Source: a virus
Strand: one strand, 5' to 3'
DNA: 55,526 bases
Virus record (IMG/VR): IMGVR_UViG_3300022664_000329
Coordinates: 1-55,526 of that record
Below, in pieces: positions 16,269 through 34,556 of the stretch. The notes under the pieces were generated by a model. The model ran no database searches, was not told the DNA's origin, and saw only the letters and a list, made by a program, of their open reading frames with translations. The translations under genes were made by a program, and so were the position numbers. How positions within the stretch are numbered: position 1 is the first letter of the stretch; each line of letters begins with the position of its first letter.

Positions 16269-19200
16269 ATGCCGGACACCGACCGCCGCAATCATCACGA
16301 CATTGGCTATGGAGAGGATTTCTACCGAGCTTTAGACCCGCATTACCACGCGCCCGCCGCCCTTCCCGAAGCAAAATCAAATAACGATGCCGGTTATGGA
16401 GAGGATTTCTACCGGACTTTAGACCCGGATGCGCCGGCAACGCAAAAATCGCCTGCGGTCAAGACACCGTTACAAAACGCCCCCGAGCAACGCGGATTTT
16501 TCAAGGAAGCGGCCTCCGCGCTGGCTTCGGGCGCCGTCTCCACGGCGGAAGCCCTGACGTCCACAGCCGAGATGATCGGCGTGCCGGGCGCCGAGCGCGC
16601 TTCTTCCTATCTGCGCGGCGTGCAGGAATCCGAAGCGCTGGTCCGCCCCGATTATCTGCGCTCAGGCACCGTCCTGGATGAGCCCGCCCGCCTGGCCGAC
16701 TGGCGCTGGTGGACGAGAACAGTCGGAGAAAATATTCCCAATGCGCTGGCGATGCTGGTTCCGGCCGGCGCGGTAAGCAAGCTGGGCCAGATCGGCAAGC
16801 TCGGCACACTGCTCAAGGGCAGCGCAACCGCCCGCCGGGCCGCCGCCCTGGGCGCCGGCTTTTCGGCGTCCTTTCCCCTGGAAGCCGGTTCGGCGTATTC
16901 GAGCGCGAAACAGGAGATGTCGGCCACAGGACAGTATGACGCGGATACGATCGAACGCATTGCCACGGCCGAAGGCCTGGTCGCCGGAACGACAAACGCG
17001 ATTATCGAGCTGCTGCCGATCGACAGCCTGCTTTTCAAGCAGTCCGGCGGCGATCGGCTGCTGCGCCGCATTCTCCGGCAGGCGTACATCGAGGGCGGCA
17101 CGGAAACGGTGCAGGAGGCGGTCAATATTCTGGTGGAGCAGTACGGGCATGCCCCCGACGCCACGCTGAAGGATCAGATCGGCCGCGTGATCGAGGCGGG
17201 ACTGGCCGGCGGGGTGATCGGCGGCGGTTTCGGCGCGACGATCGGCACGGCCGAGCATCGCGCAAAGACCAACGCCTATTTGGCCATCGCGCATAAAACG
17301 GACCTGGATGAAGATATTGTCCGCTGGAAACAGGAGGACCTGCCGGACAAAAACATTGCCGAGCTGGTATCCGCAAGGCTCGATGACTACCGCCGCAGCG
17401 CCGCGCCCGACGAAACAACGCAGATTCCCGCCAAGATCGACGCGGCGGAAATGGTGTCGTTTGTGCTGTACGGCTCCGGCAGATTCCAGCCGGACCGCTC
17501 CGGTGCAAAAAAGAAAGCAGCCGTTTTACGCGCGATGGGCATGAAACCGAAAACGCCGCCCGCGGAAATGCCGATGACGACATCGGCCGCCGACGGCAAG
17601 GCGGTGATCACGGAAGAACAACGCGCCCAGGCGCAAAACGAGCGGGCCGCCGCGAACAGGAAGGCCCAGGGAAAGACGTTGTTCGACGCGGTGGCCAGCG
17701 AGGACCTGGCCGAAACGCAGGCGATCGAACAGGCGCGCCAGGATGACGAGGCCCGCCGCAATGCAGAAACGGTCCGCCTGGCCGCCGCCGAGCAGGCCAG
17801 CCGGGATAAGGCGGTAGCAGACGCCCAGAGCCGGCAAGACGCGCTCATCGCCCGCCTGGCCGGCGCTGATCCGCAAAAGCAGGCCCTCGTCCAAGACGTG
17901 CTGGGGCTTTCGGAACGGGCGCTTTTGTCCGCTGTGCAAAAAGAGCTGAAGCTGACTGTTACGCCCGCCGGCCCGGGAGCTTACACGGTGGAGACGCCCG
18001 GCGGGCCGCAGCCCGCCGATCTGTTCGATTTACGGCAACGCCTGGCCGAAAAGCGCTCGGCCGATTTTACGGCCCGCCAGGACGAGGAAGCGGCAAACGC
18101 GGCCGCGGTCCGCCGAATGGAAGAAGAACAGGCCCGGAAAAAAAGGGAGCGGGAAGCCGCCGCCGCTCTTGATATGTCCCGCCGTTCCCTTGTGGCTTCG
18201 CTTTCCGGCCCGACGCCGCAGCAGTTGGCCCATCTCAATGCCAACCGGCAGCGTTTGACGCCGGACGAGATTGCACGCCTGGACCGCTGGATGAAGAAGG
18301 ACCGCGACTCTGCGCCGGTGTCGCCGCCGCCTGCGCCCCGCCCGCCGGCTGTTATTTCGGAAGAGGTCAATGCCGCCGCCAAAGCGGCGCCACCCCCAAA
18401 GCAGGACAACGGGCAGGATGACGAGGCGGCCCTGGTCGATCTGATGCTGTCCGATGTGGCCAACGCCCGCAAGGGCGGAGAGCTGCGCACGGACGATGCC
18501 GGAGAAACGATACGGGACACGGCGGGCATTGCCTGGCTTACGGCCGCGAACAGAGCGGGCGCGGACGTAACGGTGAAGGACGCTAAAACGGTGCTCAACA
18601 AGGTCAAGACCGGAGAGGACCTGACGGAGCGCCAGCAAAGGCAGCTGACGGCGATTCTGGACGCCATGCGGGCGGCCGGCGGGGCGAAAGTCACGCAGGC
18701 GCTTTCCTGGGCGAAAAAAGGCTATATTCCGGTGGACAATCGCCGCATCGCCGTGCGCGACATGGTGGAAGGCGACTCCTATGTGATCGACAACGAGGAA
18801 TTCCGCGTCACGGATATCGATGACGCAGGAAATGTCACGCTCAAAGACGGAACGATCAAGAAGGTCCGCGACGGCGAGATGCTGACCGGCGTGGATTTTG
18901 TGAAGCCCGTGGAAGGCGCGGAAGATTTCAGCGGCGAATCCTTTGACGACGCCATGAAAAGAGTGGAGAGCGAAGCGGAGCCCCCCCAAGCGCCGCCGGT
19001 TCCCGAGAGCCGAAAGACGCCGCCCGCTTCCGTCGCCGTGACGACGGGGCTGAAAACCAAAGCTCCGGAGAAACGGGATATTTCGCAACTGGCCGGCGAT
19101 CTGGCCGCCGGACGTATCGCGCCCGGGAAATTCACGTTTCCCGCAGATGTTACGCCGCAGGAGATAAACGAGGTCTGGGACGATCTTTCCGCCGCCGTGG

Positions 19201-22200
19201 AAAATATCGCCAAGAAAAATGAGCCTTTCATCCGCGCTCTGCATGAGGAAATTGATGCGCTCGGCCCCGCCCGCACCGCCGCTATCAAGGCGCAAAAGAA
19301 AGCGCTGCTGGATAAGATCCGTGCGCTGCAGGACGAAGCCGATGCACTTGACCGCAAAATTACCAACGCATTTGAAGGCGCCCAGGCGCAGCTCCTGGAC
19401 ACAATCATTGAACGGGCCAAGGCCGAAGGTCTGTTTATTGACGACGCAGAGTCGGAAGAGGTTTATGAGCTGTATTCGACGCTACAGGAAGGACGTTCTC
19501 ACGACCCGCTCTTTATCGACGGGAAAATCCCGGAAGATTACGTCAATACCTGGACTGTCCCGCTGGCCGAGCAGATTCTGGATGAACTGCGCGCCCAGCA
19601 GCCTACCGGCGATGCGTATCCCGTCCCCAACAGTTCCGGCGTGTACAATGAGAAGCAGAAGAAAGCCGAAGTGATTAGCTTCCCGCAAAACAAAGCTTTT
19701 GACGCGGCCGTCTATGTCTTGCAGGTCGGTCCCGAAGAATGGATTTCGGCCGAGGACGTTTCGCTCAAAACCGGCAGCTATGCGGGACAGAGCTCGCCGC
19801 TGACGAAAAATCCGGTTTTCCCGACGCGCAAAGCCGCGCTGGCCGACGCGTTGAAAACGGTGCAGCAGTTCGGCGAAAGCAATGCCCGGGATGCCAGTTC
19901 GCCTGCAACCGACAAATCGCGCAAGGCCGCCGCCCAAATCGCTCAATGGGCCGAAAAGCAATACCTGGAGCTTTATCCGCCGTCGCAGGCGCCGTCGCAG
20001 GCGGTCGCCGTGACGACGGGGCTGAAGAAGACTCCGGAAACGGCGCCGCCGCCAATAATCAAACGGATTCTTGATATTTACGGGAGATATCATTACGTCG
20101 ACCAAAACGAATTGCAGGGCGATAGAACCATTCTTAAAACTTATAATAGCCGCGGAGAGCGCCTGCTCGCCGGAGGCGGAATCCACAGAGGATATATCGT
20201 TAATCAGGAAGACACCAGCGCCGTCGAGAAGGCAAGGAAAGTGGCGAGGTTGAGGAGTCTCGAAACCAAGGCGCAGAAAGAAATGTTGACGGATGGGGAA
20301 ATAAAAGAAACCAAAAGTCTCATTGCGGAAATCTACAACAAACCGGTTGAAAAACCCTCCGAACCTGCTACAATCCCCGACGTGACACCCCCCAAGGGGA
20401 CGGCCGACATACCCGCCAAGATAACCCCACAGGCCGAGGCGTGGAAAGACAAAATAGAAGCAGATGTAAAAGACGGTTGGTATATTCATGGTAGAAGGGG
20501 CACGGATGATCTTCTTTCTGAATTTAAAAAGCATGAAATATTTGTGTCAAAAGAGGCCGATGTTGCAGAAGATTATGCTGGCAACAAAGGTTCAATTTGG
20601 CAGCTAAGACCAAAGAAAACGGCAAACATCTTAGATGCGACCGACGACATTCAACGAACCGAAGTTGTCGATAGGTTAAAAGAACAGTATGAAAGCGGTG
20701 ATCTTAACAACGGCGCATATACTAAGCTCTCGCAAGAGATTGATGACGAAATTGAATCCTACGGCGAAGGCAAAGCATGGGAAAGAATATCTGAATCACT
20801 AAATCCGAAGGATATCGTTGAAGATGAGGGATTTTATAGCGATACTGACTTTGTAAATTGGCTTTACGAAAACTTTGAATACGATTTTGTTTCAACAAAT
20901 CGCGGAGGCGTTGCCTATAATCCAGATGCTTTCGATCTAAAGAAATTCAACCCTAACCCATCCCGCCCCCCGGAGGTTGGGGGGCAGTCTGTAAACCTGT
21001 CCACTGAAGATCTGTTTGGGGCCGTTGAAAAAGCCGTGACGACGGGGCTGAAACCGAAAAAGGCCGCCGCCCTGCCGCCCGAAATGCCGATCATCCGCGC
21101 CCGCCTTCAACACCTGAAAAGCCTGGGCGTAAACACCGCCGGATATGATGAATGGGTAAAGGTTATGGAATCCGGCGACGCCGCGGCGCTGGCCAACGAA
21201 CCGCCGGCACAAGATACCCTGCGCGCCATCAATCTGACCATTGCCGAGGAAGAAAAAATATTAAAGGCCCAGGCCCAGGAGAAAGGATTCGGCGCGGGCA
21301 ATACGCTCTTTACCGAGGACAAGGCGGCTAAGGCCCGGGCGATTCTCAAGGCCAAGTTGTCCGGCGCGCAGCTCAATGCCGGCATTGATCCGGAAATCCT
21401 CACGGCCGGCATCGACCTGGCCGGGTATTACATCGAAGGCGGCGTGCGCAAGTTTGCGGACTTCACTGCAAAAATGGTGGAGGATATCGGCGAGCAAATC
21501 CGGCCCTATCTCAAGTCGCTTTACCTGGCCGTGCGCAATTATCCCGGCTTCGACAATGCGGGAATGGAGACGGAAGCCGATATCGAAAAGTCCTTGACCG
21601 CCGCCGCCGCCACAGATAAAATCGCCGCGAAGGGAGAAAAAAGCCATGCCGATTCATCTGACCTTGACGCCGGAGCAGCAGGAAACGCTCCAGCGGTTGC
21701 AGCCTCTGCTCGACAAGCAGAACAAAACGCCGGAAGATTACCGGAAGATGTCCGAGCTGTTGTATCCGGAATTGAAGGCCAAGCTCGCCGCGAAGGGAGT
21801 GAAGTTCCCCAAGGCGTAAATCTCCCGGCGGAGATCCAGGCGCACGCCGAGCAGTACCTCTACCATGCCACTTACGCGGAAAAAATCGCCGGCATCAACG
21901 CCGCCGGCCTCGATCCGACCAAATCCAACCAATACATTTACGGCAACGACACGACGAAAAGGGTGTACCTTTCCCCGGACCAGGAGTTGTCTCTCGCGTT
22001 CGGCGACGTGCTTTTGCGCGTCCGGCGCAGCGCTCTGAATCAAAAGCTCCTCAAGGAAATCGCACGCCAGGGCGGTCAGGAAGTCTGGTATTTCGACCGC
22101 ATCGCCCCGTCGCTGATCGAACGCCTCACCCCCCGCGGCGAATGGGCCGCCCTGTCTGCGCAAACGGAGAAGATTCCGCAAAGCGTGGCCGTGACGACGG

Positions 22201-25200
22201 GTGCCAAAACGCCGAAAACAAAAGAATCCCCCTACATGGCCGCGGTCGGACTGATTTCCGGCGGCCGCGCGGACCGCGCCGTTGCCCGCGGTTATGTTTT
22301 TGCCTATGGCCCGGCGGACGCCGCCACCCAAAGTGAAATGGTAGGCCTCTTTTCGGGTCTGGCCGCCGATAAGCTCATCGAGGCGGGGATTACGATAGAA
22401 CGCAAAACGCCCGCCGCCTTCAAGAAAGGCGACCGCGTGGTGATGAAAAACGGCCGCCACGGTGAAATTATCGCCGATGAAAGCTACACGATGATCGCGG
22501 CCACGATCTTCGGTGGGCAGAGAAACGTCGAGCGCTACGAAAATTACCGCGTCCGCACCGACGCCGGCGCAGAATTCGGGATGATCAAACCGGAGGACCT
22601 GACGAAGGAAACGGAAAAACCGGCCGAACCGGTGGTTCCGGACATAAAACTCATAGACGGTCATTTTAACGAACCGGACCGTGTTTTAAACCGAATCGCC
22701 CTGCATCAAAGCAATGAACAGAAAAAACGTGCTTCCGCACAACGGGCGCGAAAGCAGGATAACATTGATAAATTATTAGAAGCCGCAGAAAAAGAAAAGC
22801 GAATCGCTGCTGGTTTGCGCGCCCGCTATGACGAATGGGCCGCAAAGTATCCGGACGAAGCGGCCAAGCACGCCCCGGCCAAGACGCTGCCGCCCATCGG
22901 CCAGGTGCATCCGTCGATCCGGGAGAAGTATGCGGCAAAGCCGACTGCCGCAGCAGCAAAAGCATATCCGGACTTGACCGTGTCCGGTCACCCCAAACCC
23001 GTGCCGGATCATCCGGATGCCTCTTATGTGGTTCATATCCGCAAGCCGGACTTGATCCCTGACACTTTCCGCGTCGTTGTGTCTGCACAACGCGCGGCAG
23101 GCGGCGGTTTCCTGACGCAGGCCGGAACGGGCATGACTCCGGAACAGGCGTATGACAATGCCCTGGCCAACTACGACAGGACCATTGAAACGCGGCGATC
23201 CTCCACCAACCAGGACGCTGAGAGCGTCACGAACACAACCACACCCGTTGACAACGAAAAAACAAACGATTATAATAAGATTGAACAGGAGGCCCAAGAT
23301 GCCCCATCTGACCGACACGATACAGACGAAACATCGTCTGAAGATGATCGAGCAGGCGCTCAAGGACCAGGCACCCGAGATGTATCAGCAACTTCAGACG
23401 AAAGGTCAACTTCCGGAGTATCTCAAGGAACGCGACGCGCTGATGATGAACACGTTCGAGGTCCTGTTCGTGGAACTCTGCAAGCTGCCATCCGACACGA
23501 ATCCGACCTATCAGGAACAAGTCCAGCACCTGACTTCCGCACGCAACCGGGCGTGGGAAGAAACAATGGCGACGTGGCTGACGTTCAGCGATCCGCAGCC
23601 GGAGAGCGAACCGACCATGTCATCACCCCCGGCGCCATAGACCGTACCGGTTCCTGGTTCCAGACCGCCAAAAACAATCTCGACATCATCGAACTGGCAA
23701 AAAAAATCCAGACGGAAAACCGTCCGGCAACGCCCACCGAACAGGCGCTGCTTGCCCGCTATACGGGCTTCGGCGCGTCGGAAATCGCCAACCGGATGTT
23801 TCCCGGCTGGGCCGAAGCGGGCGAGATTCAACTCTGGCGCGCCGATCAAAAATGGAAGCCGCTGGTGGAACGCATGCAAAAGCTGTTTTCACCCGCGGAG
23901 ATCGCCACGGCCGCCCGCTCTACGCAATACGCGCATTACACCAGCCCGGCCATTATCGATTCGATCTACAAAGCGCTTGACGGCTTCGGCTTTCCCGGCG
24001 GCCGCGTCCTGGAACCGGGCATGGGCGTGGGCTCGTTTTTCGGTCTGATGCCGGAATCGATGCGGACGACAACAAAATATACCGGCATCGAAATGGACGG
24101 GATTACGGCGCAGATCGCCAAGCTCTTATATCCTCGCCAGAATATTATTGAAGGCGATTACACCAAGGCGCAGTTTCCAAATAATTATTTCGACCTGGCT
24201 ATCGGCAATCCTCCGTACGCCAAAACGATGATATTGGCCGATCCGGATTACAAGAAGCTGCGGTTGTCGCTGCATGACTTCTTTTTCGTCAAATCCCTGG
24301 ATAAAATCCGCCCCGGCGGGCTCATGGTGTTCATCACGTCGCGCTATACGATGGACAAGGTGGACAGCCGCGTGCGCAAAATCCTCAATGAAAAGTCCGA
24401 CCTCCTGGGCGCCGTCCGCCTGCCGCAAACGGCATTTGCAAAAAACGCCGGCACGGAAGTGGTAACAGACGTGATTTTTCTGCGCAAGAAAGTCCCCGGC
24501 GAAAAAAGCGCCGGGATGATGTGGGGCGAAGTCGCCCCGGTTACTACGCCGGAAGGCGATTTCCGCATCAATGAGTATTACCTGGCCCACCCCGAAATGG
24601 TTCTCGGCGATCATTCCGGCCGCGGCACAATGCAAAATTCCCGCGATCCGCAATACACGGTCCTGCCCCGCGAAGGCAATATCGAAGAGGCGTTTGCCCA
24701 GGCCGTCACCCATCTGCCCAAAGCCGTCTATTCCCTGATCAAAGCCGCGCCGGCGGTGCAGGAAGCCGCCGCGATCGAAAGGGACTTCAATCCACAAAAC
24801 AAGAAAGAAGGCGGCTTGTATCTGTCCCCCAACGGCCAGGTGATGGTCACGGAGTCCGGAGCCGGTGTGCCGATTACCGCTATCGCCCCGAAACTGTCAG
24901 ATAAAGACAGGCGCTGGTTGACGTCCTATATCACGCTCCGGGACGCGGTGAAGCAATGCCAGTATGACCAGCTCACCGACGGAGACTGGGAGTCGTCGCT
25001 CAAGGAACTCAACAGGGTGTACAAGGCCTTTAAAATGGCCTGGGGCCGCATCAATGCGTTTACGATCACTGAACGCAAATCCACGGACGAAGACGGAAAG
25101 GAAATCACCATCCATCTGCGCAAATTCGCCAACAGCCGCCTTTTGCGCCTGGATGTCGAATCGCCGCTGGTCATGGCGCTCGAAAAGGTGACGGAAGATT

Positions 25201-28200: not shown

Positions 28201-31200
28201 TGCGTGTTGTGCAGGCGCAGGGCGGAAACACGGAAGTGTGGGACCGCAGCGGACAGACGGAATTAATCCCCGGAAAGGTGGTCAATCAGCTCCAACTGCG
28301 CATTACGGATGATGTGATCTATGACGTCGCCAGCGATATCACGGATACGTCCGACGCGCCGGGCCTCGTGACCCGGCTCACGAACCGCGCTAAAGCCGTG
28401 CCTTCCGATCTGGCTCAGGCGAAACAATCACTGGAAGAAACCGAAACGGAACTTAAAAAGATCAACGCCCGTCTCGGCGCGCCTTTTGAGCTGGCGCGTG
28501 AACTGGAAGAAAAAATCGCCGAAGCGGCGCAGATTGACGCCGATCTGGTCCGCGAAGGACAGGCCACCGCCGCCGCACAACAACAGCAGCACACTGCGCC
28601 GGCGCAAACACCCGATCAGACTCCGCCCGACACTTCCGGGCCGATGCTTTCGCTCGAAGAAACTCCGATATTTTTCTCGCAGATGTCCCGCGTGCTCCAG
28701 GCGAAGCTCCCCGGCTCCGGAACGCCCGAACAGTACCGCTCCGCGATTGTCTCCTGGGCCAACAAGGGCGAATTCAAGGCCGACGAGTTGAAATGGTCCG
28801 GGCTCACCGACTGGCTGGTGGCGCAAAAAGGGAAGCTCGCCAAACAGCAGGTGCTCGATTATCTGGCGGCCAACGAAGTGCAGCTCCGGGAAGTGCATCT
28901 CTCCGACACCCCCTCCGATCCGCAGCTGGACCGTCTGAAAAACGCCTTTGCACAAGCCGAGGAGGGCGTACGGGCTATCGAGCAGGCGCTGGGCGCCCGT
29001 CCCTATATGTCCGGTGCGCCTCTGCGCTGGATGTACCGGCCGGACGACGAAGCGCCCCGGAATGTGCCGAAGCAGTATTTCGACACGCTGGACCGCTGGT
29101 CGGAAGCAAGACTCGACCTGGATGATTACCAGGCCACCCATGAAGGATTTTTTGAAGAAGATGAGGAAAGCACCGGCCGTACGCAATACTCTAATCAACA
29201 ACTTCCCGGCGGAAAGAATTACCGGGAACTGCTTTTGACGCTGCCGGAAAAGAAAACCGTCCCCACATTGAAGCACTCTTACCGTTCCGCCCATTGGAAC
29301 ACGCCCAATGTTCTGGCGCATGTGCGCTATAACGACCGGACGGATGCCAACGGGAACCGCGTCTTGTTTCTGGAGGAAGTCCAATCCGACTGGCATCAGG
29401 AAGGCAGAAAAAAAGGGTATGCTGACGACAAAATTACCAGGACGCCGCCGACCCGGGACGAAATAGCGCAAGAGATTTATGGTGCGCGATATGCGGACCT
29501 GGACACGGTAACGCAAAGCGCCGTCGATGGAGAACTTGACGCCAGAATTCATGGCACCGGCGGCGCCGCGCCTGCGACCAGCGGCATCAGTTACGTTCCG
29601 CCTGCGCCGTTTGCCAAGACCTGGCATGAGCTGGCCATGAAGCGGATGCTGCGCTATGCGGCTGAAAACGGCTACGACAAGGTGGCTTGGACCACGGGCG
29701 AACAGCAGAACGAGCGATACAATTTGAGTAAGCATATCGAGAGTATTGGTTACCACAAAAGGGGCGATTTGTTCGCGCTCACCGTTTGGGATAAAAAAGG
29801 CAAGGCTATATACCAAAATCAATCAACCACGAAGCAAGAGGTTGAGAACACCATCGGCAAAGAAATGTTGCAAAAGATGGAAGCCAATGTCGGACGCCGG
29901 GAAAATGGGAATTTTTACATTGAAGGTCTCGACCTGAAAGTCGGCGGCGAAGGAATGAAGGGCTTTTACGATACGATCCTGCCCGCCTTCGTGAATAAGT
30001 ATGCGAAAAAGTGGGGGGCGAAAGTCGGTACAGCGGATATCCGGACGGAAGCATTAAACAGGACGCCTGGAGCAGCTAAAGCTGATACGGTATCCGTGCA
30101 CGCGATCGACGTCACGCCCGCGATGAAAGAGTCCGTCCTGACCGGGCAGCCGATGTTTTCGCGCCAGGATAAAACAGCCCACCGGCGCCCCCATCGTCTG
30201 GGCGACGTGGAGCTGGATGAGATGGTGCAGCAGCTCGCGGCGCTGCTCAAGGGCGTGAAAATTGTCAAACACGGAAACGAAATCCGGCTCAAAACCCGAT
30301 CCGGTGAGGAAGTCCGGATCGAATCCGCCGAGCAGATCGATCCGGACACCATCGCGCTGGCCATCAAGAAGCATTATTCGCAGGATAAGAAGCAGACGCC
30401 GCAATCCGGCGCAGGCGTGGCCGGTATGTATTCGGCGGGCAAGATCACGCTGGTGGAGGATGTGGCGGGCATCTGGACGCTGTCCCATGAGTTTTATCAT
30501 TTCCTCGAAGACATCGGCGCGATATCCAACGCCGACAAGGCAACGCTGAACCGCAAAATTGCATATCTCGTCACGTCTCAACCCGAAACCTATGGCTATC
30601 TGCAGGAGCGGTCGCTCCCCGAACAGCGGGCCGATTACGTGGGCCGCACGCTCACGGGCATGTATGACGCGACGACGCCGACCGGCACGATCCTGGCGCG
30701 CATCCGCGAAGTCATCGACCGCATTCTCAACGCGCTCGGCATCCGGACGGCCCGCGGCATCCTGCGCGATATTGAAACCGGGAAGATTTATAAGGACCAA
30801 GGGGAAAGGAACAAGGGGCAAGAGAAAGGGAAAACTCCCCTCCTCCGGCAGGATATTGACAACATCCGGGAACGGGCTTATACTTATGGTGAAGGAGGTA
30901 AGCATGAGACATCTGTATCCGATTCCGGATTCGACGGAGAAGGTAGCCGGCAGTATCCCGGACGAGACGCCGCCTTACGGTTCCAGCCGACCGTCGTCGG
31001 CCGCGAAAAGAAAGGCTCCATCCCGGCCGCAGGACGCATCGTCCGAACACCACACGACGCCGCGAAAATCGCAGCAACGTATCTAAACAAGTATCCAGAT
31101 GAACACATGATTTCCCTTGTCCTTGATGCCAAGGGCAAGGTCATCTCCGTGTATCATCACACCAGCGGCCTGCCCGGAAACTCCCAGGCATCGATGCCGA

Positions 31201-34200
31201 TTCTCGCCGGCGAAGCCATGAATACCCCCGGCGCGTCATCTATTATTGTTGCCCATAACCATCCGTCCCAAAACGCTGAATTTTCGCCAGAAGACCGTGC
31301 ATTTGCCCGCCAACTGAACAACTTATTGACCGGCTCCGGCGTGACCATGCGGGATTTTCTGGCAGTTGCACAGAAACAATATTCTTCTTACAGCGAAAAT
31401 ATGCTCGTTTATGTCGACGACAGCGTTGACATAAACAGCGCCAGATCAGGAGTAAAAATCCCTATTGTTGGCCGAATCTTTGAATCGGTACGCTCTCCCC
31501 TCCTCAAGGTTTCGTCCGCCGAGGATGCCTTGCCGCTGGCGCAGCAGTATATCCCCGACGGTGGAACATTGATATTGGATGGCCAAAACGCCCTTGCCGG
31601 TTTTTCCACTATTCAGAACTATGGACGAATTCGCGGCGACGCGCAGCGGGCTATTTTGCAGGATATCGAAAAACGAAACGGCCGCGCCATGATCGTCTAT
31701 TCCCCCGGTCGTATCGTCGGCACAGCCGAATCTTTTAATCTCGGGAAGTTTATTGCTGCAACCGGCGGCCAGGTCCGCCTGTTAGATATTATTGATTCGT
31801 CCGGCTCTCACGCGGACAATGGGGATATGCCCGCGATTCCCACGGCAGATTCCAGCTTGTTTTTGTCCGTTGCCGAAGATGTCACCGAAAAAGCGGCAGA
31901 CGCCGTCGGGCGCAAAGTCTCCCGCGCGGTCGATCTGATCACGGGGCGCGTATCTCCCGAAAAACGGGAGACGCTTTCCGCCCTGCGCAAAAGCTGGGCG
32001 GAATTCTGGCGGCCGTTTTCGACGGTGACAAACGGCGAGGAGGTCCTGGCCCGCCGCTATGAATCGATGGGCAATGTGGCCAAGGCGGTGCGGTTTATCG
32101 AGACGATGAAGGCGGAACTGGATCAGTTCCCGCCGGAAACGAAGAAAGATATTTTCTGGTATCTGAACGGCGACATTCCGCTGACCGTCCTGCCGGAAGA
32201 CGCCCAGACTTTTGCGAAAAATATTCATCGCCGGACGGAAATTATCGGTGAAATGCTGGTGGACCGCGGGCTCCTGACGGAAGAAACCTTTGAGGCACAC
32301 AAAGGCACGTACGTTCACTACCTTTACGCCAAGCATATCGTGGGCGAAGATGCGCCCGTGGGCATTACGTCGTCGGGCAAGCTGGATCTGTCCTACACGC
32401 TCCGGCGCAATCCCGATCTGACGATGCAGCAACGCAAGGAGCTGGGCCTGATCGACGATGCTTCCGTCGCCGTGCCGGTGGGCATGGGCAAGGCGCTCAC
32501 GGATATTGCGAAGTTCGATTACCTGGAGACGATCGCGGAAAATCCCGACTGGGTCTGGCAGCCGTCCGTGGTGCGTGTGGCCGTGGGCAAAAAGCTCAAG
32601 ACGCCGGTGATGGGCCGGACGCGGCGCTATGTGATGATGGGCATCGGCAAACTCCAGGAACAGGTCCGCACGTATGACGAGATGATGCGGACGCGGCCGA
32701 CTACCGAAGTGGCGGAGATCCACAAAATCCTCACGGACGCCTGGCAAAAAGAGCAGGCCAAGACGCAAAACGCGCCCGCCGACTTCGTGCAGCTGCCCAA
32801 CACGCGCGGCTACGGGCCGCTCGCGGGCGCCTTCGTCAAAAAGCCGATCGCGGACGATCTGCGCCCGGTGATGGATGTCAATACGGACCGCGGCAAACTG
32901 CTCAACACGGTTCTGGAAATCGAACGCCAGGGCATGGCGGCGTTCAAGATGGGGAAAGTCGCGCTCAATATTCCGACGGCCTGCCGTAATATCGTGTCCA
33001 ACATCATTCAGAACAACATGCGCGGCCGCGCGCTGGCGAAGATCCCCGGCGATATCGTGGCCGCCTGCCAGTCGATGAAAGCCAGGGACGCTCATTATGA
33101 AGAGGCGTTCGGCATGGGGCTGTTCCATACGAATTGGTTCGTGACGGAAATCAACGATGTGCTCCAGGAATTCCGCAAGATCGAGTCCGGCCGGATCGAT
33201 CAAATCCTGTCTGCGGTGAAAAACGTGGCGAAGTATTACGGCCGGATTGACGATATCAGCAAGTTTGCGATCTTTCTGCAGATGCGCAAAGCCGGCGCTC
33301 CGATCGACAAGGCCGCGATCGAAGCCATGAAATGGGGAATGGACTATTCGCTCACGTCGCGCTCGATCAAGGGGCTGCGCCAGACGATCATGCCGTTTGC
33401 GACGTACCAGTATAAGATCGCTCCGCTCATCGCCGAATCGCTGCGCAAGCGGCCCTGGGTGCTCGCCAAGTTCGCGCTGATTTATCCGGCGGCCAAGCTC
33501 GCGGCGATGGCGCTGCACGATCTGGACGACGATGACTGGGAGGACCTGGAAAAACAGCTGCCGGCCTATATCAAGAAGTCCGGCTCGATGATGATTCTGC
33601 CCTGGAAGACGGATCAGGATCAATGGCAGTGGGTGAATCTGGAGTATTATTTCCCGTTCGGCAATATGCTGGCGATTTTCCGCGATGCCAAGGCGCTGGA
33701 TTCCGGCGAGGCGCTGCGCGATCTGGGCATTTCCAATCCGTTTCTATCCATGTTCTACACCGGGCTTTCGGCCCGCGAGGATTCTCCGCCCTTGCATGCG
33801 TATTCCGGCATTCCGATTTACAATGAGCTCGATCCGGGATGGATGAAGGCGGCAAAATATCTGGAGTACATGGCCAATACGTGGCTGCCCGGCATGCTCA
33901 CGCGCCAGGGCGCCCTGGGCTACACGGGCAAAGCGATTGCCGGCGGCGAGGACCGCTGGGGCCGCGAGGTGTCGTTCGGCCAGGCGCTCGGCCGCTGGTT
34001 CGGTTTCAATATTGTCTCGGTGTCGCCCGAGCAGTCCCGCGCGCAGGTGGCGGTGAAGATCCAGGATCTGCACAAGGAGATGGCCCGGATCGAGGCCGAT
34101 CCGTCCCGCAGCGACGAAGCTAAGGCGGAATACCGCGCCCGGATGAATGAAGAGTTGTCGCAGATGGCCGAGCAGGCGCCGGCCGCCGTGCTGCCGATCA

Positions 34201-34556
34201 CGAAGGCCAAGGGGCCCGATCCGGTTTATGACGCGCTGCGCACCATGGCCGCCCGCGGCATTCTGCACACCGGTCCGCCGTCGCGGACGCTGGAGATCGG
34301 CGGCATTCCGCGAAAAATGACGCTGGAGCAGTACCGGGAATATCTGGACCGCTCAAGCGATATCGCGCGGCGCAAACTGGCTGCGCTGGTGACGTCGCCG
34401 TCGTGGGAGACGATGACGGATGAACGAAAAACGCAGGTGGTCTCCGGCATTGTCGCCAACGCCCGCAAGGCGATCCGGCAAAAAATAAAGGCGCAGCTGG
34501 CCCGCGAATTCCGCGGACAACAGTTCCGGCCGCAAAATAGCGAAAAAAGGAGTTGA
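16269..34556 (+). CDS. Giant polyvalent virion-associated protein (6,095 aa): DarB-like N6-adenine DNA methyltransferase + SNF2/DEAH helicase core, flanked by many other modules including HExxH peptidase-like and RadC/JAB domains
   Basis: Uninterrupted 18,288-nt ORF with a GGAGG SD 8 nt upstream. Motifs read in the translation: EPGMGVGSFFG and NPPY (MTase I/IV); AHAVGAGKT, FVDEAH and QPVGRILRQGN (SF2 helicase I, II, VI); SHEFYH (HExxH); IIVAHNHPS...SPED (JAB/RadC). Position corresponds to T7 gp16. Confidence 0.85.
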   Translation: MPDTDRRNHHDIGYGEDFYRALDPHYHAPAALPEAKSNNDAGYGEDFYRTLDPDAPATQKSPAVKTPLQNAPEQRGFFKEAASALASGAVSTAEALTSTAEMIGVPGAERASSYLRGVQESEALVRPDYLRSGTVLDEPARLADWRWWTRTVGENIPNALAMLVPAGAVSKLGQIGKLGTLLKGSATARRAAALGAGFSASFPLEAGSAYSSAKQEMSATGQYDADTIERIATAEGLVAGTTNAIIELLPIDSLLFKQSGGDRLLRRILRQAYIEGGTETVQEAVNILVEQYGHAPDATLKDQIGRVIEAGLAGGVIGGGFGATIGTAEHRAKTNAYLAIAHKTDLDEDIVRWKQEDLPDKNIAELVSARLDDYRRSAAPDETTQIPAKIDAAEMVSFVLYGSGRFQPDRSGAKKKAAVLRAMGMKPKTPPAEMPMTTSAADGKAVITEEQRAQAQNERAAANRKAQGKTLFDAVASEDLAETQAIEQARQDDEARRNAETVRLAAAEQASRDKAVADAQSRQDALIARLAGADPQKQALVQDVLGLSERALLSAVQKELKLTVTPAGPGAYTVETPGGPQPADLFDLRQRLAEKRSADFTARQDEEAANAAAVRRMEEEQARKKREREAAAALDMSRRSLVASLSGPTPQQLAHLNANRQRLTPDEIARLDRWMKKDRDSAPVSPPPAPRPPAVISEEVNAAAKAAPPPKQDNGQDDEAALVDLMLSDVANARKGGELRTDDAGETIRDTAGIAWLTAANRAGADVTVKDAKTVLNKVKTGEDLTERQQRQLTAILDAMRAAGGAKVTQALSWAKKGYIPVDNRRIAVRDMVEGDSYVIDNEEFRVTDIDDAGNVTLKDGTIKKVRDGEMLTGVDFVKPVEGAEDFSGESFDDAMKRVESEAEPPQAPPVPESRKTPPASVAVTTGLKTKAPEKRDISQLAGDLAAGRIAPGKFTFPADVTPQEINEVWDDLSAAVENIAKKNEPFIRALHEEIDALGPARTAAIKAQKKALLDKIRALQDEADALDRKITNAFEGAQAQLLDTIIERAKAEGLFIDDAESEEVYELYSTLQEGRSHDPLFIDGKIPEDYVNTWTVPLAEQILDELRAQQPTGDAYPVPNSSGVYNEKQKKAEVISFPQNKAFDAAVYVLQVGPEEWISAEDVSLKTGSYAGQSSPLTKNPVFPTRKAALADALKTVQQFGESNARDASSPATDKSRKAAAQIAQWAEKQYLELYPPSQAPSQAVAVTTGLKKTPETAPPPIIKRILDIYGRYHYVDQNELQGDRTILKTYNSRGERLLAGGGIHRGYIVNQEDTSAVEKARKVARLRSLETKAQKEMLTDGEIKETKSLIAEIYNKPVEKPSEPATIPDVTPPKGTADIPAKITPQAEAWKDKIEADVKDGWYIHGRRGTDDLLSEFKKHEIFVSKEADVAEDYAGNKGSIWQLRPKKTANILDATDDIQRTEVVDRLKEQYESGDLNNGAYTKLSQEIDDEIESYGEGKAWERISESLNPKDIVEDEGFYSDTDFVNWLYENFEYDFVSTNRGGVAYNPDAFDLKKFNPNPSRPPEVGGQSVNLSTEDLFGAVEKAVTTGLKPKKAAALPPEMPIIRARLQHLKSLGVNTAGYDEWVKVMESGDAAALANEPPAQDTLRAINLTIAEEEKILKAQAQEKGFGAGNTLFTEDKAAKARAILKAKLSGAQLNAGIDPEILTAGIDLAGYYIEGGVRKFADFTAKMVEDIGEQIRPYLKSLYLAVRNYPGFDNAGMETEADIEKSLTAAAATDKIAAKGEKSHADSSDLDAGAAGNAPAVAASARQAEQNAGRLPEDVRAVVSGIEGQARREGSEVPQGVNLPAEIQAHAEQYLYHATYAEKIAGINAAGLDPTKSNQYIYGNDTTKRVYLSPDQELSLAFGDVLLRVRRSALNQKLLKEIARQGGQEVWYFDRIAPSLIERLTPRGEWAALSAQTEKIPQSVAVTTGAKTPKTKESPYMAAVGLISGGRADRAVARGYVFAYGPADAATQSEMVGLFSGLAADKLIEAGITIERKTPAAFKKGDRVVMKNGRHGEIIADESYTMIAATIFGGQRNVERYENYRVRTDAGAEFGMIKPEDLTKETEKPAEPVVPDIKLIDGHFNEPDRVLNRIALHQSNEQKKRASAQRARKQDNIDKLLEAAEKEKRIAAGLRARYDEWAAKYPDEAAKHAPAKTLPPIGQVHPSIREKYAAKPTAAAAKAYPDLTVSGHPKPVPDHPDASYVVHIRKPDLIPDTFRVVVSAQRAAGGGFLTQAGTGMTPEQAYDNALANYDRTIETRRSSTNQDAESVTNTTTPVDNEKTNDYNKIEQEAQDAPSDRHDTDETSSEDDRAGAQGPGTRDVSATSDERSTSGVSQGTRRADDEHVRGPVRGTLQAAIRHESDLSGTSPAPDFRTQPGVGRNNGDVADVQRSAAGERTDHVITPGAIDRTGSWFQTAKNNLDIIELAKKIQTENRPATPTEQALLARYTGFGASEIANRMFPGWAEAGEIQLWRADQKWKPLVERMQKLFSPAEIATAARSTQYAHYTSPAIIDSIYKALDGFGFPGGRVLEPGMGVGSFFGLMPESMRTTTKYTGIEMDGITAQIAKLLYPRQNIIEGDYTKAQFPNNYFDLAIGNPPYAKTMILADPDYKKLRLSLHDFFFVKSLDKIRPGGLMVFITSRYTMDKVDSRVRKILNEKSDLLGAVRLPQTAFAKNAGTEVVTDVIFLRKKVPGEKSAGMMWGEVAPVTTPEGDFRINEYYLAHPEMVLGDHSGRGTMQNSRDPQYTVLPREGNIEEAFAQAVTHLPKAVYSLIKAAPAVQEAAAIERDFNPQNKKEGGLYLSPNGQVMVTESGAGVPITAIAPKLSDKDRRWLTSYITLRDAVKQCQYDQLTDGDWESSLKELNRVYKAFKMAWGRINAFTITERKSTDEDGKEITIHLRKFANSRLLRLDVESPLVMALEKVTEDFQIADGPFLSSRTIKKPEPPQISTVADALAVSLNEKGRLDLAHIASLMGASEADVFEQLGDLVYDTPDKGIQLADAYLSGNVVKKLEEAKAAAKIDPKYERNVQALIASLPKPLTAKDITPSPGATWIPLPVYNDFLHEVLELPESAAADHSPADNQWTISGLPVQSQRGRASAWSSPDRGANEIFSAVLNNATLKVYKTEKVAGVEKTYLDPAATAQVNDIAKKMKIRFRNWVWENAGRAHELLNIYNSTRNNIVPRRFDGSHLTLPGVSLRFKLMPHQKNAIWRIIQDGNTYIAHAVGAGKTYEMVAAGMEMKRLSLISKPLYVVPNHMLQQFANEFQELYPLAHVMVADEENFHTTNRRRFMAQAALNNPDAIVITHSAFGLLKMKQENILPVRNDVVSEMQAALDDLEGDKKANRIRIKQMEARIEQTEQRFESMIAQGDNVITFEDMGVDFLFVDEAHQFRKLDFTTNRQAKGVDPSGSVRAMMLYIKTQWLDRQNPGRSHVFASGTPITNTMGELYTVMKFFDMDGLRRDGLDYFDSWAAEYGDMNSAPEMNAAGRYEIVDRFSRFVNVPELMSRVRSFMDVLTSSQLGAFVKRPKVRGGQPTIVVTPASPALKNYQTNVLLPRIESSKNWKPSKEEPGNPDPLINIITDGRLASIDMRFVAPGSPNDPDSKLNKYIDKIIEHYKETAGHTYLDPATGQKSPVRGAAQICFYNHGFGRGVASSRGFDARAWAMRRFKEAGIPVDEIAWIDDFDTAAKKEAVMKEVRNGHKRILIGSAKKMGTGMNVQTRLSHMTYLDPPWYPSDVEQPVGRILRQGNQNEEVGIFYFSTKGSYDATMWQMVTRKAKFIEDALAGGGARAIEDISESSLYEMAAALASGDERAIRLAGLRNEIEGLENLRSAHYHTQTNLQREKRLYEIGHPGKKAYVAKLEAAMQKVPFDLRYLSAQHPIKAKLGHRDYTDRKAFAQDLLAKIVALRNAGTAGTTPIGHFFGLELRVVQAQGGNTEVWDRSGQTELIPGKVVNQLQLRITDDVIYDVASDITDTSDAPGLVTRLTNRAKAVPSDLAQAKQSLEETETELKKINARLGAPFELARELEEKIAEAAQIDADLVREGQATAAAQQQQHTAPAQTPDQTPPDTSGPMLSLEETPIFFSQMSRVLQAKLPGSGTPEQYRSAIVSWANKGEFKADELKWSGLTDWLVAQKGKLAKQQVLDYLAANEVQLREVHLSDTPSDPQLDRLKNAFAQAEEGVRAIEQALGARPYMSGAPLRWMYRPDDEAPRNVPKQYFDTLDRWSEARLDLDDYQATHEGFFEEDEESTGRTQYSNQQLPGGKNYRELLLTLPEKKTVPTLKHSYRSAHWNTPNVLAHVRYNDRTDANGNRVLFLEEVQSDWHQEGRKKGYADDKITRTPPTRDEIAQEIYGARYADLDTVTQSAVDGELDARIHGTGGAAPATSGISYVPPAPFAKTWHELAMKRMLRYAAENGYDKVAWTTGEQQNERYNLSKHIESIGYHKRGDLFALTVWDKKGKAIYQNQSTTKQEVENTIGKEMLQKMEANVGRRENGNFYIEGLDLKVGGEGMKGFYDTILPAFVNKYAKKWGAKVGTADIRTEALNRTPGAAKADTVSVHAIDVTPAMKESVLTGQPMFSRQDKTAHRRPHRLGDVELDEMVQQLAALLKGVKIVKHGNEIRLKTRSGEEVRIESAEQIDPDTIALAIKKHYSQDKKQTPQSGAGVAGMYSAGKITLVEDVAGIWTLSHEFYHFLEDIGAISNADKATLNRKIAYLVTSQPETYGYLQERSLPEQRADYVGRTLTGMYDATTPTGTILARIREVIDRILNALGIRTARGILRDIETGKIYKDQGERNKGQEKGKTPLLRQDIDNIRERAYTYGEGGKHETSVSDSGFDGEGSRQYPGRDAALRFQPTVVGREKKGSIPAAGRIVRTPHDAAKIAATYLNKYPDEHMISLVLDAKGKVISVYHHTSGLPGNSQASMPILAGEAMNTPGASSIIVAHNHPSQNAEFSPEDRAFARQLNNLLTGSGVTMRDFLAVAQKQYSSYSENMLVYVDDSVDINSARSGVKIPIVGRIFESVRSPLLKVSSAEDALPLAQQYIPDGGTLILDGQNALAGFSTIQNYGRIRGDAQRAILQDIEKRNGRAMIVYSPGRIVGTAESFNLGKFIAATGGQVRLLDIIDSSGSHADNGDMPAIPTADSSLFLSVAEDVTEKAADAVGRKVSRAVDLITGRVSPEKRETLSALRKSWAEFWRPFSTVTNGEEVLARRYESMGNVAKAVRFIETMKAELDQFPPETKKDIFWYLNGDIPLTVLPEDAQTFAKNIHRRTEIIGEMLVDRGLLTEETFEAHKGTYVHYLYAKHIVGEDAPVGITSSGKLDLSYTLRRNPDLTMQQRKELGLIDDASVAVPVGMGKALTDIAKFDYLETIAENPDWVWQPSVVRVAVGKKLKTPVMGRTRRYVMMGIGKLQEQVRTYDEMMRTRPTTEVAEIHKILTDAWQKEQAKTQNAPADFVQLPNTRGYGPLAGAFVKKPIADDLRPVMDVNTDRGKLLNTVLEIERQGMAAFKMGKVALNIPTACRNIVSNIIQNNMRGRALAKIPGDIVAACQSMKARDAHYEEAFGMGLFHTNWFVTEINDVLQEFRKIESGRIDQILSAVKNVAKYYGRIDDISKFAIFLQMRKAGAPIDKAAIEAMKWGMDYSLTSRSIKGLRQTIMPFATYQYKIAPLIAESLRKRPWVLAKFALIYPAAKLAAMALHDLDDDDWEDLEKQLPAYIKKSGSMMILPWKTDQDQWQWVNLEYYFPFGNMLAIFRDAKALDSGEALRDLGISNPFLSMFYTGLSAREDSPPLHAYSGIPIYNELDPGWMKAAKYLEYMANTWLPGMLTRQGALGYTGKAIAGGEDRWGREVSFGQALGRWFGFNIVSVSPEQSRAQVAVKIQDLHKEMARIEADPSRSDEAKAEYRARMNEELSQMAEQAPAAVLPITKAKGPDPVYDALRTMAARGILHTGPPSRTLEIGGIPRKMTLEQYREYLDRSSDIARRKLAALVTSPSWETMTDERKTQVVSGIVANARKAIRQKIKAQLAREFRGQQFRPQNSEKRS
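16305..16427 (+). repeat. Two copies of a 12-aa / 36-nt repeat, GYGEDFYR[AT]LDP, at the N-terminus of the giant protein
   Basis: 16305-16340 and 16392-16427 are nearly identical at the nucleotide level. Confidence 0.8.
19032..19055 (+). repeat. Linker motif VAVTTGLK, copy 1
   Basis: gtcgccgtgacgacggggctgaaa. The 14-nt core gccgtgacgacggg is shared by all four copies. Confidence 0.9.
20004..20027 (+). repeat. Linker motif VAVTTGLK, copy 2
   Basis: gtcgccgtgacgacggggctgaag. Confidence 0.9.
21033..21053 (+). repeat. Linker motif AVTTGLK, copy 3
   Basis: gccgtgacgacggggctgaaa. Confidence 0.9.
21646..21819 (+). CDS. Embedded 57-aa ORF in the +1 frame of the giant ORF (MPIHLTLTPEQQETLQRLQPLLDKQNKTPEDYRKMSELLYPELKAKLAAKGVKFPKA)
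   Basis: GGGAG SD lies 9 nt upstream. By hand count, 47 of 57 codons end in G/C in this frame, against 18 of 57 in the giant frame over the same nucleotides. The giant-frame translation here is Ala/Gly/Ser-rich shadow-like sequence. Confidence 0.5.
   Translation: MPIHLTLTPEQQETLQRLQPLLDKQNKTPEDYRKMSELLYPELKAKLAAKGVKFPKA
22185..22208 (+). repeat. Linker motif VAVTTGAK, copy 4
   Basis: gtggccgtgacgacgggtgccaaa. Confidence 0.9.
23299..23640 (+). CDS. Embedded 113-aa ORF in the +1 frame of the giant ORF, TnpV-like by recollection
   Basis: Perfect AGGAGG (23287-23292) lies 6 nt before the ATG and is preceded by an AT-rich intergenic-looking stretch. About 73% of codons end in G/C in this frame. 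The pattern LKDQAPEMYQQLQTKGQLPEYLKERD resembles the LKEHxPxLYxxLxxxGKLxEHLxExD core of TnpV-type proteins. The giant-frame translation here is S/T/D/R/G-rich. Confidence 0.6.
   Translation: MPHLTDTIQTKHRLKMIEQALKDQAPEMYQQLQTKGQLPEYLKERDALMMNTFEVLFVELCKLPSDTNPTYQEQVQHLTSARNRAWEETMATWLTFSDPQPESEPTMSSPPAP
24012..24218 (+). other. N6-adenine DNA methyltransferase catalytic motifs within the giant ORF
   Basis: Motif I EPGMGVGSF at 24012-24038. Motif IV NPPY at 24207-24218. Confidence 0.8.
26097..26589 (+). other. SF2 (SNF2/DEAH) helicase motifs I and II within the giant ORF
   Basis: GAGKT at 26097-26111. DEAH at 26578-26589. Motif VI QPVGRILRQGN lies further downstream, near 27640. Confidence 0.8.
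30486..30500 (+). other. HExxH (HEFYH) zinc-metallopeptidase-like motif within the giant ORF
   Basis: Codons cat gag ttt tat cat, read directly. Context: TLSHEFYHFLEDIG. Confidence 0.5.
30856..30906 (+). promoter_or_regulatory. Near-consensus promoter + SD + ATG inside the giant ORF, with the ATG in the +1 frame
   Basis: TTGACA (30856-30861), 17-nt spacer, TATACT (30879-30884), AGGAGG (30893-30898), 5 nt, ATG (30904-30906). Confidence 0.45.
31254..31268 (+). other. RadC/JAB (JAMM-type) HNHPS motif within the giant ORF
   Basis: IIVAHNHPSQNAEFSPEDRAFARQL, preceded by the typical RadC core (ISLVLDAKGKVISVYHHTSG). Confidence 0.7.

Follow-up and report, generated by a model that had tools for sequence, protein, structure and literature searches.

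A 6,095-residue phage protein that probably combines an N4 gp50-type ejected carrier with a DarB-type unit and other exchangeable cargo

The IMG/VR virus record IMGVR_UViG_3300022664_000329 (55,526 nucleotides, analysed over its whole length and hereafter called the window) carries a single giant open reading frame (ORF) encoding a protein of 6,095 amino acids (aa). It is a genuine late gene, whose product is probably packaged in the virion and injected into the host as a carrier built like gp50 of phage N4 and gp75 of phage Bcep22, with exchangeable cargo. The integrity of the ORF, the domain content, homologies and synteny of the giant gene, and the recent gain and loss of its modules are documented below.

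An intact giant gene with independent relatives

A sequence-only reading of the window had described one uninterrupted frame filling a third of the genome. This was borne out by a single ATG-initiated frame covering 33.0% of the 55,399-bp genome unit, with a GGAGG ribosome-binding site 8 nt 5' of the ATG, and every motif listed in that reading was located in the translation at its expected place. An open frame of 6,095 codons cannot arise by chance, as about 4% stop codons were estimated at random for this composition. The MPDTD N-terminus was also found in the relatives P0001 and P0121, and the IMG/VR relative 3300028640_000030 begins with MPDTT. Uninterrupted IMG/VR relatives of 4,626, 5,520 and 5,651 aa, which share its N- and C-terminal domains, were present on independent contigs, and the database protein P0132 was 98-99% identical to the giant protein across ~3,400 aa; the giant frame is therefore not regarded as an artefact.

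At 6,095 aa, the protein was the longest of its kind in all searches, followed by those of 5,651 and 5,520 aa, and occupied 33% of its genome compared with 22-24% for Bcep22-type proteins. Its size, earlier called exceptional, is so in terms of length and genome share, but the two relatives next in length exist and it represents the upper tail of a distribution. A nucleotide search with the giant ORF against 50,697 phage records returned no match.

Profile matches to the N4 virion RNA polymerase

The N-terminal, HExxH and C-terminal regions of the giant protein matched N4-like virion polymerases in the same order, and it is for this reason most likely a gp50-type ejected carrier in which the polymerase cargo has been replaced. 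According to Iyer et al. (PMC5512222), N4 gp50 comprises an N-terminal region for injection, a central polymerase and a C-terminal 1,400 aa for encapsidation, the latter including an HExxH metallopeptidase-like domain. Gp50 is present in 4±1 copies per virion, its N-terminal domain enters membranes, and it contains a ~100-aa low-complexity linker; its domains are modelled as beads on a string, which would allow passage of the ~35 Å tail channel after gp52 and gp51 have formed a trans-envelope conduit (PMC13434306, PMC13492108).

A nine-member alignment of N4-like virion polymerases was compared, segment by segment, with three alignments of the family of the giant protein (hhalign profile-profile test). 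The N-terminal regions matched over 285 columns (P=2.8e-5, probability 74%), the HExxH module matched the gp50 metallopeptidase region over 250 columns with HExxH placed on HExxH (P=4.3e-4, probability 34%), and the C-terminal domain matched the extreme C-terminus of gp50 over 426 columns (P=1.1e-3, probability 20%). The last alignment held the conserved strings FDYSLV / FVNYDxL and RNxxSN...GVP. The three cognate matches were collinear, and 18 of 18 non-cognate or reversed controls had P values of at least 0.03. Against the single N4 gp50 sequence, hhalign gave no significant match, the signal appearing only with the nine-sequence profile.

The N-terminus of gp75 of Bcep22 and gp42 of phage Gamede matched both the N-terminal profile of the window family (probability 95.5%, P=1.5e-8) and that of N4 (probability 98.2%, P=3.8e-14), which closes a three-way homology of the N-terminal domains at the profile level. 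Iyer et al. (PMC5512222) describe their searches with the gp50 N-terminal region as having found nothing beyond related phages. Gene order and size, and these two only, ran in parallel as well: the N4 series of gp54 (tube, 299 aa), gp53 (plug, 885 aa), gp52 (150 aa), gp51 (644 aa) and gp50 (3,500 aa) has as its counterpart in the window 308, 1,093, 176, 382+424, (202) and 6,095 aa.

No RNA polymerase family was found in Pfam or PHROG scans of the giant protein, and the three carrier profiles, outside which the central cargo lies, did not match the N4 polymerase segment. Lacking a polymerase, the giant protein falls outside the virion polymerase family and has only the carrier in common with it.

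The DarB-type core

Judged by its order of an LPD36-like domain, a gamma-class N6-adenine methylase and an SNF2-type superfamily 2 helicase, the core of the giant protein is a true DarB-type unit. The catalytic motifs of the methylase (GVGSF at aa 2586, NPPY at 2647) and of the helicase (GAGKT at 3277, DEAH at 3437 and motif VI, QPVGRILRQGN, at 3790) were all intact, and the LPD36-like part contained TGFGA at 2499. Across the giant protein, Pfam recognised only the Eco57I/N6 methylase, the ResIII/SNF2/Helicase_C helicase and a RadC-like JAB domain. PHROG 10089, annotated as 'DarB-like antirestriction', matched aa ~2310-4115 with 1,717 bits, the matched profile positions being only 1224-3230 of 4,647.

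The best matches to the core in phage collections were the giant genes of Bcep22-like Burkholderia and Ralstonia phages (~48% identity). By BLASTP, the core was 46% identical to Bcep22 gp75 and Gamede gp42, and the regions common with these two proteins were limited to aa 1676-1827 and 2449-4096. P1 DarB aligned with the core in three collinear BLASTP segments, one in the methylase (30% identity, E=5e-20) and two in the helicase (E=4e-15 and 1e-10). The DarB-like methylase-helicase pairing and the polyvalent fusion proposed earlier are both upheld by these matches, several unrelated enzymatic or effector domains being present in one chain. The only experimental anchor on the DarB side is JC1 gp69, a relative of Bcep22 gp75, which was detected with 51 unique peptides in CsCl-purified virions by mass spectrometry (PMC9144972).

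The HExxH, RadC-like and G modules

The HExxH and RadC/JAB modules read from the translation were both recovered, with HEFYH at aa 4740, an intact JAMM motif at aa 4996 and a match to the RadC-like JAB family PF04002 (65.2 bits against a cut-off of 22.1, E=6.7e-18). The HExxH module was found in most family members, the common region being aa ~4645-4845.

Module G was the part of the C-terminal third most widely common with other polyvalent proteins. It occurred in most of the best 120 matches to this third, which are polyvalent proteins, sometimes in tandem copies. It had no Pfam match and no solved fold. A Foldseek search of the PDB with a model of G plus the HExxH module (predicted local distance difference test score, pLDDT, 71) gave no match at E<0.01, and GNAT-like alignments with a probability of ~0.5 were not relied on.

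The protein family and turnover of cassettes

Searches of 5.8 billion proteins with the C-terminal third and the N-terminal 2,440 aa as queries defined a family of 2,700-3,830-aa proteins, and stitched IMG/VR ORFs extended this range to 5,651 aa. Its members have in common the N-terminal region (aa ~56-900), the HExxH module and the C-terminal ~900 aa, and their middles vary. P0001, for example, is 3,274 aa long and 75% identical in the C-terminal domain, without modules 1-4, the DarB unit and RadC. In an exhaustive HMMER search, the C-terminal domain was found in 2,558 cluster representatives (473 at E<=1e-30), in full-length proteins of ~900 to 5,651 aa, and in full-length relatives it lay at the C-terminus or at most a few dozen residues away from it. 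A model of this domain (pLDDT 74) matched C-terminal pieces of many viral 'large polyvalent protein' entries of BFVD, with E values down to 6e-20. The ~1,150-aa C-terminal region with hydrophobic segments described in the sequence-only reading is present, but its conserved part is ~900 aa (5191-6095) with one strongly hydrophobic segment; the second such segment is N-terminal, a Gly-rich stretch of the N-terminal carrier domain (aa 307-325).

At the extreme N-terminus, the two copies of GYGEDFYRxLDP had counterparts in almost every relative checked (P0001, P0121, P0122, P0124, P0125, P0127, P0129, P0131 and three IMG/VR relatives), in the form of exactly two copies of another, lineage-specific motif of 6-18 aa, often aromatic/acidic. 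These duplicated short motifs precede a conserved RGFxxExASALG, the start of the carrier domain. The sequence of the motif evolves fast while its duplication is kept.

Queried as a single sequence, the N-terminal region gave no match in IMG/VR, whereas the alignment-based scan did find relatives. Ten non-core segments of ~300-600 aa were scanned with Pfam, PHROGs and NCBIfam, and no significant match came from the N-terminal region, from modules 1, 2 and 4, from the HExxH module or from the C-terminal domain. Only noise was obtained from the PDB, whether by sequence or by profile, when the N-terminal region, modules 1-4, G+HExxH+RadC and the C-terminal domain served as queries.

Cargo was gained and lost as cassettes, as seen from P0132, which loses module G and gains a mini-module, and from N4-like polymerases with extra linker domains. 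Compared across aa 1633-6095, P0132 was 98-99% identical to aa 2190-4131 and 4625-6095 of the window protein; it is without exactly module G (aa 4132-4624, 493 aa) and has an extra mini-module of ~75 aa behind an extra junction peptide, PPASVSATTGIP. Its first 578 aa were only 90% identical to the window protein, so that divergence was uneven along the protein. Looking up P0132 by its exact sequence gave no contig. The N-terminal domains of the virion polymerases of Stenotrophomonas phage Pokken (L027) and Ruegeria phage vB_RpoP-V12 (L029) are followed by small, extra, folded-looking linker inserts; these sit in the position of modules 1-4, and one of them looked GNAT-like by eye.

N-proximal modules and junction peptides

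Four modules of ~330-380 aa separated by VAVTTGLK linkers had been read between the N-terminal domain and the core, and the motif (SVAVTTGLK) was indeed found four times, at aa 922, 1246, 1588 and 1973, with spacings of 324, 342 and 385 aa. BLASTP of the giant protein against itself revealed no internal repeats; the four modules are therefore not paralogues, and only the junction peptides repeat. Module 3 holds a ~150-aa domain (aa 1669-1827) common to Bcep22 gp75, Gamede gp42 and other polyvalent proteins, and parts of module 4 were common to a few IMG/VR relatives, there too after a junction peptide. No homologue of module 2 was found in a word-index search of the 5.8 billion proteins. This module had a guanine plus cytosine (GC) content of 46% and a GC content at third codon positions (GC3) of 46%, compared with a genome GC of 57% and a carrier-domain GC3 of 75-78%, and on account of this deviant composition looks like a recent import from a foreign low-GC source. 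GC3 was also lowered (0.57-0.59) in module 4 and the RadC region.

Variants of the junction motif occurred in relatives, as PQSV[QT]ATTGLKP in the 5,520-aa IMG/VR protein (five copies), AAQGVTTAIGKPAEKAK in the 5,651-aa protein (three copies), AIE[SA]TTGLKK in P0001 (two copies), P[AQ]SVQTLTGK in P0126 (two copies) and P0122 (one copy), and PQSVAVTTGIK in P0132 (two copies, counting the one before its mini-module). At least two copies were present in 8 of 282 collected proteins (6 of them non-redundant) and in none of 20 shuffles. The motif was limited to the close family and to the zone directly after the N-terminal domain, and was absent from the N4-like and Bcep22-like proteins examined. 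Junction peptides lay in Pro/Lys/Ala-rich linkers, exactly on module borders, and homologous modules began directly after them in different relatives. In L009, the copies differed in synonymous codons; the constraint thus acts on the peptide, and the repeats were set aside as DNA-level recombination sites.

A similar string, DAS[VI]AVPVGMGKAL, was observed in the C-terminal domain (aa 5398-5411; 32460-32500) and was kept in 11 of 11 close family members checked. It resembles the junction ASVAVTTGLK in having ASVAV followed by G and K, a likeness that may be a coincidence or may reflect one partner recognising both.

Genome setting and flanking non-coding cassettes

A direct repeat of 127 bp at the window ends (1-127 and 55400-55526), within the portal gene region, is the assembly overlap of a circular or circularly permuted genome and not a biological repeat; the genome unit is therefore 55,399 bp, from a circular assembly. 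By gene content and by gene order on the same strand (Table 1), the phage is temperate and podovirus-like, with the giant gene as the last of the virion module. Homologues of five of the six genes of the upstream block stood before the giant gene in L004, in the same order, and of three in L005; the 202-aa membrane protein had no homologue at that position in either L004 or L005. In genome collections, the nearest contigs came from metagenome bins labelled Syntrophaceae, Verrucomicrobiota and Deltaproteobacterium NaphS2. Among the neighbouring products, the 804-aa DUF2341 protein may be a tail fibre or receptor-binding protein, and the 202-aa protein could be a moron, such as a superinfection-exclusion protein.

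A non-coding cassette of ~130-150 nt was present in only two copies in the window, one on each side of the giant gene. Its elements are, in order, CGAAAAAAGGAnTTGATTTG, a spacer of 17-18 nt, a promoter-like TATAA[AT]AT, a small hairpin TTCCGGnnTGATCACCCGGAT and a strong terminator-like hairpin AAAACCCGGACGGCACCGCAnCCGCCCGGGTTTTTT. In both copies, the terminator-like hairpin is followed by a ribosome-binding site and ATG, which in copy 1 are the GGAGG and ATG of the giant gene; copy 2 sits between the stop codon of the giant gene and the next gene. The order promoter-terminator-gene is reminiscent of lambdoid late-promoter antitermination units, and recombination between the two copies would remove the 18.3-kb gene cleanly.

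Table 1. Features of the giant gene and of its surroundings in the window.
Feature	Position (nt)	Strand	Details
Giant ORF	16269-34556	+	ATG start, 6,095 aa, 671.7 kDa, isoelectric point 6.07, single terminal stop
GYGEDFYRxLDP, two copies	16305-16427	+	aa 13-24 and 42-53, extreme N-terminus
N-terminal carrier domain	16434-19025	+	aa ~56-919; kept across the 2,700-5,651-aa family
Junction peptide 1	19026-19055	+	PPASVAVTTGLKTK, aa 920-929
Cargo module 1	19056-20003	+	aa 930-1245; sole relative weak, in P0121
Junction peptide 2	19998-20027	+	SQAVAVTTGLKKT
Cargo module 2	20028-21029	+	aa 1254-1587
Junction peptide 3	21024-21053	+	AVEKAVTTGLKPK
Cargo module 3	21054-22184	+	aa 1596-1972
Junction peptide 4	22179-22208	+	PQSVAVTTGAKTP
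Cargo module 4 and acidic Ser/Thr-rich low-complexity stretch	22209-23588	+	aa 1981-2440
DarB-type core	23613-28556	+	aa 2449-4096; LPD36-like, N6-adenine methylase, SNF2/ResIII-type helicase, post-helicase region
Module G	28629-30188	+	aa 4121-4640; VLFLEEVQSDWHQEG at aa 4365
HExxH zincin-like module	30189-30968	+	aa 4641-4900; HEFYH at 4740
RadC-like JAB domain	31044-31400	+	aa 4926-5044; intact JAMM HxHx7Sx2D, HNHPSQNAEFSPED at aa 4996
C-terminal carrier domain	31839-34553	+	aa 5191-6095, all-alpha, hydrophobic helix aa 5731-5749
Non-coding cassette copy 1	16108-16250	+	sigma-70-like hexamers, small hairpin 16153-16173, terminator-like hairpin 16213-16246
Non-coding cassette copy 2	34541-34672	+	hexamers, hairpin 34603-34623, terminator-like hairpin 34634-34667
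Upstream gene block	8207-16120	+	308, 1,093, 176, 382, 424 and 202 aa
308-aa tail-type gene	8207-9133	+	weak SU10-adaptor match
1,093-aa tail-type gene	9134-12415	+	
Four small/medium proteins	12449-16120	+	176, 382, 424 and 202 aa
202-aa protein	15512-16120	+	4-5 transmembrane segments; directly 5' of the giant gene
Large terminase	53022-54476	+	
Portal	spans assembly junction, ends 1289	+	
Major capsid protein	2819-3778	+	
Tail-type protein, 804 aa	5455-7869	+	DUF2341 domain, E=2e-22; 5' of the adaptor-like gene
Endolysin	36685-37122		downstream of the giant gene
Primase-helicase	40181-42865		
Tyrosine integrase	48177-49184		

Proposed role of the giant protein

In the proposed mechanism, the carrier would be formed by the N-terminal domain and a C-terminal pair, namely the HExxH metallopeptidase-like module and the ~900-aa all-alpha domain. 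On the model of N4 gp50, encapsidation would be directed by the C-terminal region, while the N-terminal domain would go first in ejection and become anchored in the inner membrane. The place of the N4 RNA polymerase would be taken by independently folding cargo modules on low-complexity linkers, again as 'beads on a string', comprising the four N-proximal modules, the DarB-type unit, module G and RadC/JAB. The capsid would take up a few copies along with the DNA; these would be threaded down the tail channel behind the smaller ejection proteins encoded just 5', and the cargo beads would refold in the cytoplasm and act in the first minutes of infection. There, the methylase-helicase may guard incoming DNA from restriction by methylating or shielding it, in the manner of P1 DarB, and RadC, G and modules 1-4 may serve as further early effectors in the conflict between phage and host.

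Packaging, ejection, copy number, anti-restriction and any proteolytic processing are properties that we infer for the giant protein. The earlier proposal that it is probably packaged and ejected is kept on the strength of homology (JC1 gp69, N4-like polymerases) and genomic context only, and several points weigh against it. Virion presence and ejection are carried over to the giant protein from its relatives. At 672 kDa, it is nearly twice the size of N4 gp50, and threading of such a chain through the tail channel would be an extrapolation. The matches of the HExxH module and the C-terminal domain to gp50 are weak (probability 20-34%) and lean on their collinearity and on the controls, not on the significance of the single scores. 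The C-termini of gp75 and gp42 did not match the C-terminal domain of the window protein, and a Foldseek search with the model of this domain gave no match at E<1 in the PDB (entries to April 2026), a library that full-length N4 structures may postdate; the N4 gp50 structures 9PNR and 9PNT were not among its results. Finally, the other structural proteins of the window had no BLAST similarity to those of N4, which is why the synteny with N4 is confined to order and size.

Alternative explanations

An assembly chimera, or several genes joined by sequencing errors, would be in keeping with the 127-bp overlap of the assembly and with the GC differences from module to module. It is nevertheless extremely unlikely, as unbroken ORFs of 4,626-5,651 aa with the same ends were found on independent contigs, P0132 was 98-99% identical over ~3,400 aa, and the conserved N- and C-terminal domains occupy the two ends of the chain, just as they do in every relative. 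The protein could instead be a late enzyme that stays unpackaged in the cytoplasm of the cell producing it, where it might methylate progeny DNA, for instance. Its methylase and helicase motifs would be intact in that case too, and DNA could be protected by a stand-alone methylase ahead of packaging. This reading is very improbable, since the gene ends the structural module directly after tail and ejection-type genes, homologues of the core (JC1 gp69) and of the N-terminal domain (N4 gp50) are virion proteins, and the ~900-aa N- and C-terminal domains, which also accompany unrelated cargo in other proteins, serve no evident purpose in an enzyme of the cytoplasm. The comparison with T7 gp16 drawn in the sequence-only reading agrees with the gene position, after adaptor-/nozzle-like and small internal-protein-like genes as in T7 gp11-gp16, and the giant protein is, in addition, mostly alpha-helical with hydrophobic segments. 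That it is a gp16-type core protein, i.e. an ejectosome subunit with an enzymatic N-terminus in a core stack on the portal, is very improbable all the same: neither Pfam nor PHROGs detected a lytic transglycosylase, the C-terminal model matched no solved structure, T7 gp16 structures being present in the PDB, and the profile matches lead to N4 gp50 and Bcep22 gp75 instead. The likeness to T7 gp16 is one of position alone, and N4 gp50 is the closer analogue.

Compatible with a packaged and injected carrier is a further reading, possible though doubtful, in which the giant chain is a self-processing precursor, cut at the junction peptides (SVxxTTGLK and variants) into an N-terminal anchor and free effectors by its own HExxH module or another protease, in the capsid or after injection. 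The peptide occurs four times in the window and one to five times in each of seven relatives, at least two copies were never seen in shuffles, and selection acts at the peptide level, as the synonymous codons of L009 indicate. The junctions also mark module borders within linkers, with homologous modules starting right after them, and the HExxH module was present in every full-length motif-bearing protein. Iyer et al. (PMC5512222) predict metallopeptidase processing of such proteins into units and give P1 DdrB as a protein known to be processed. They also describe N4 gp50, however, which has the homologous HExxH region, as packaged unprocessed (PMC5512222), and gp50 purifies intact (PMC13434306). 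Moreover, the HExxH module also occurs in at least four family members that have no junction motif, the motif is restricted to the N-proximal cargo zone and does not separate the methylase-helicase, G, HExxH and RadC from one another, and it fits no known protease specificity. The specific prediction that [PA]-[QA]-S-V-x-[AV]-T-T-G-L-K and its variants form a processing signal, cut by the HExxH module or a partner protease so as to free the N-proximal cargo from its membrane anchor, and also mark the borders of cassette exchange, is put forward as a tentative one that is rather unlikely to hold in full; reading the peptide as a site of either cleavage or recognition is likewise speculative.

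Significance

Three groups that have mostly been discussed separately, i.e. the N4 virion polymerases, the Bcep22-type giants and a metagenomic family of 2,558 cluster representatives, are linked here as probably one carrier design with exchangeable cargo. The presence of a near-identical variant with one module lost and another gained implies cargo turnover on very short time-scales. A third of the genome spent on one presumably injected protein would speak for the strength of selection for effectors that arrive before phage gene expression. Modules 1, 2, 4 and G are candidates for new anti-defence activities. The junction peptide, which was not found by keyword in Iyer et al. 2017 (PMC5512222), offers a testable candidate for the processing sites of polyvalent proteins predicted since 2017. 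If that prediction were true, it would be the first defined cleavage code of a polyvalent protein and a route for loading chosen cargo into a phage-injected carrier.

Comparison with known systems

Phage polyvalent proteins are a known class. The window protein fits the polyvalent proteins of Iyer, Burroughs, Anand, de Souza and Aravind (2017), in that its gene lies in a late context and its chain holds many unrelated effector-type domains, together with a metallopeptidase-like domain and the methylase/SNF2/LPD36 triad. It combines an N6 methylase, an SNF2/ResIII helicase, an HExxH module and RadC/JAB with at least five uncharacterised modules, and its gene lies on the same strand as the terminase, portal, major capsid and tail genes, with an endolysin gene downstream. 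The new elements are the probable gp50-type carrier with DarB cargo, the record length and genome share, the conserved junction peptide and the direct evidence of cassette exchange.

N4 gp50 and the window protein seem to follow the same plan, in which an N-terminal domain for membrane insertion and ejection is joined by a low-complexity linker to the cargo, and the chain ends in an HExxH region and a large alpha-helical C-terminal domain. The gene follows those for the tube, plug and ejection proteins in N4, and genes of like order and size in the window. The cargo is an RNA polymerase in N4, whereas in the window phage, which is temperate (integrase), it is the DarB unit with others.

The Bcep22-type phages (PHROG 10089), which include Burkholderia Lessievirus and Ralstonia Cimandefvirus and Gervaisevirus, likewise have a single giant gene (4,515-4,639 aa; 4,602 aa for Bcep22 gp75 and 4,639 aa for Gamede gp42) at the end of the virion module. 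Bcep22-type genomes are those of ~60-kb podophages, with the giant gene a few small genes 5' of the lysis genes, as in the window. The LPD36-methylase-helicase core was 46-49% identical between the window protein and the Bcep22-like and Ralstonia giants, the ~150-aa domain upstream of it was homologous too, and the N-terminal domains were homologous at the profile level. Only ~1,800 of the 6,095 aa could be aligned by BLAST, and the window protein is 1,450-1,580 aa longer, with a different C-terminal domain and the extra modules 1, 2, 4, G and RadC. An N-terminal transglycosylase is named in GenBank for the gp75-family phages DC1 and CSP3, whereas no SLT/lytic transglycosylase domain was detected in Pfam or PHROG scans of the window protein. 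Going by these alignments, its membership of the Bcep22 gp75 family is partial only.

P1 DarB (2,255 aa) is without the other modules of the window protein. According to Iyer et al. (PMC5512222), it is packaged in the head and guards DNA against type I restriction; its packaging needs the separate proteins DarA, Hdf and DdrA (PMC9144972). In the window protein, unlike in P1 DarB, the DarB unit sits inside a probable gp50-type carrier, and the carrier domains suggest a packaging route other than that through DarA, Hdf and DdrA.

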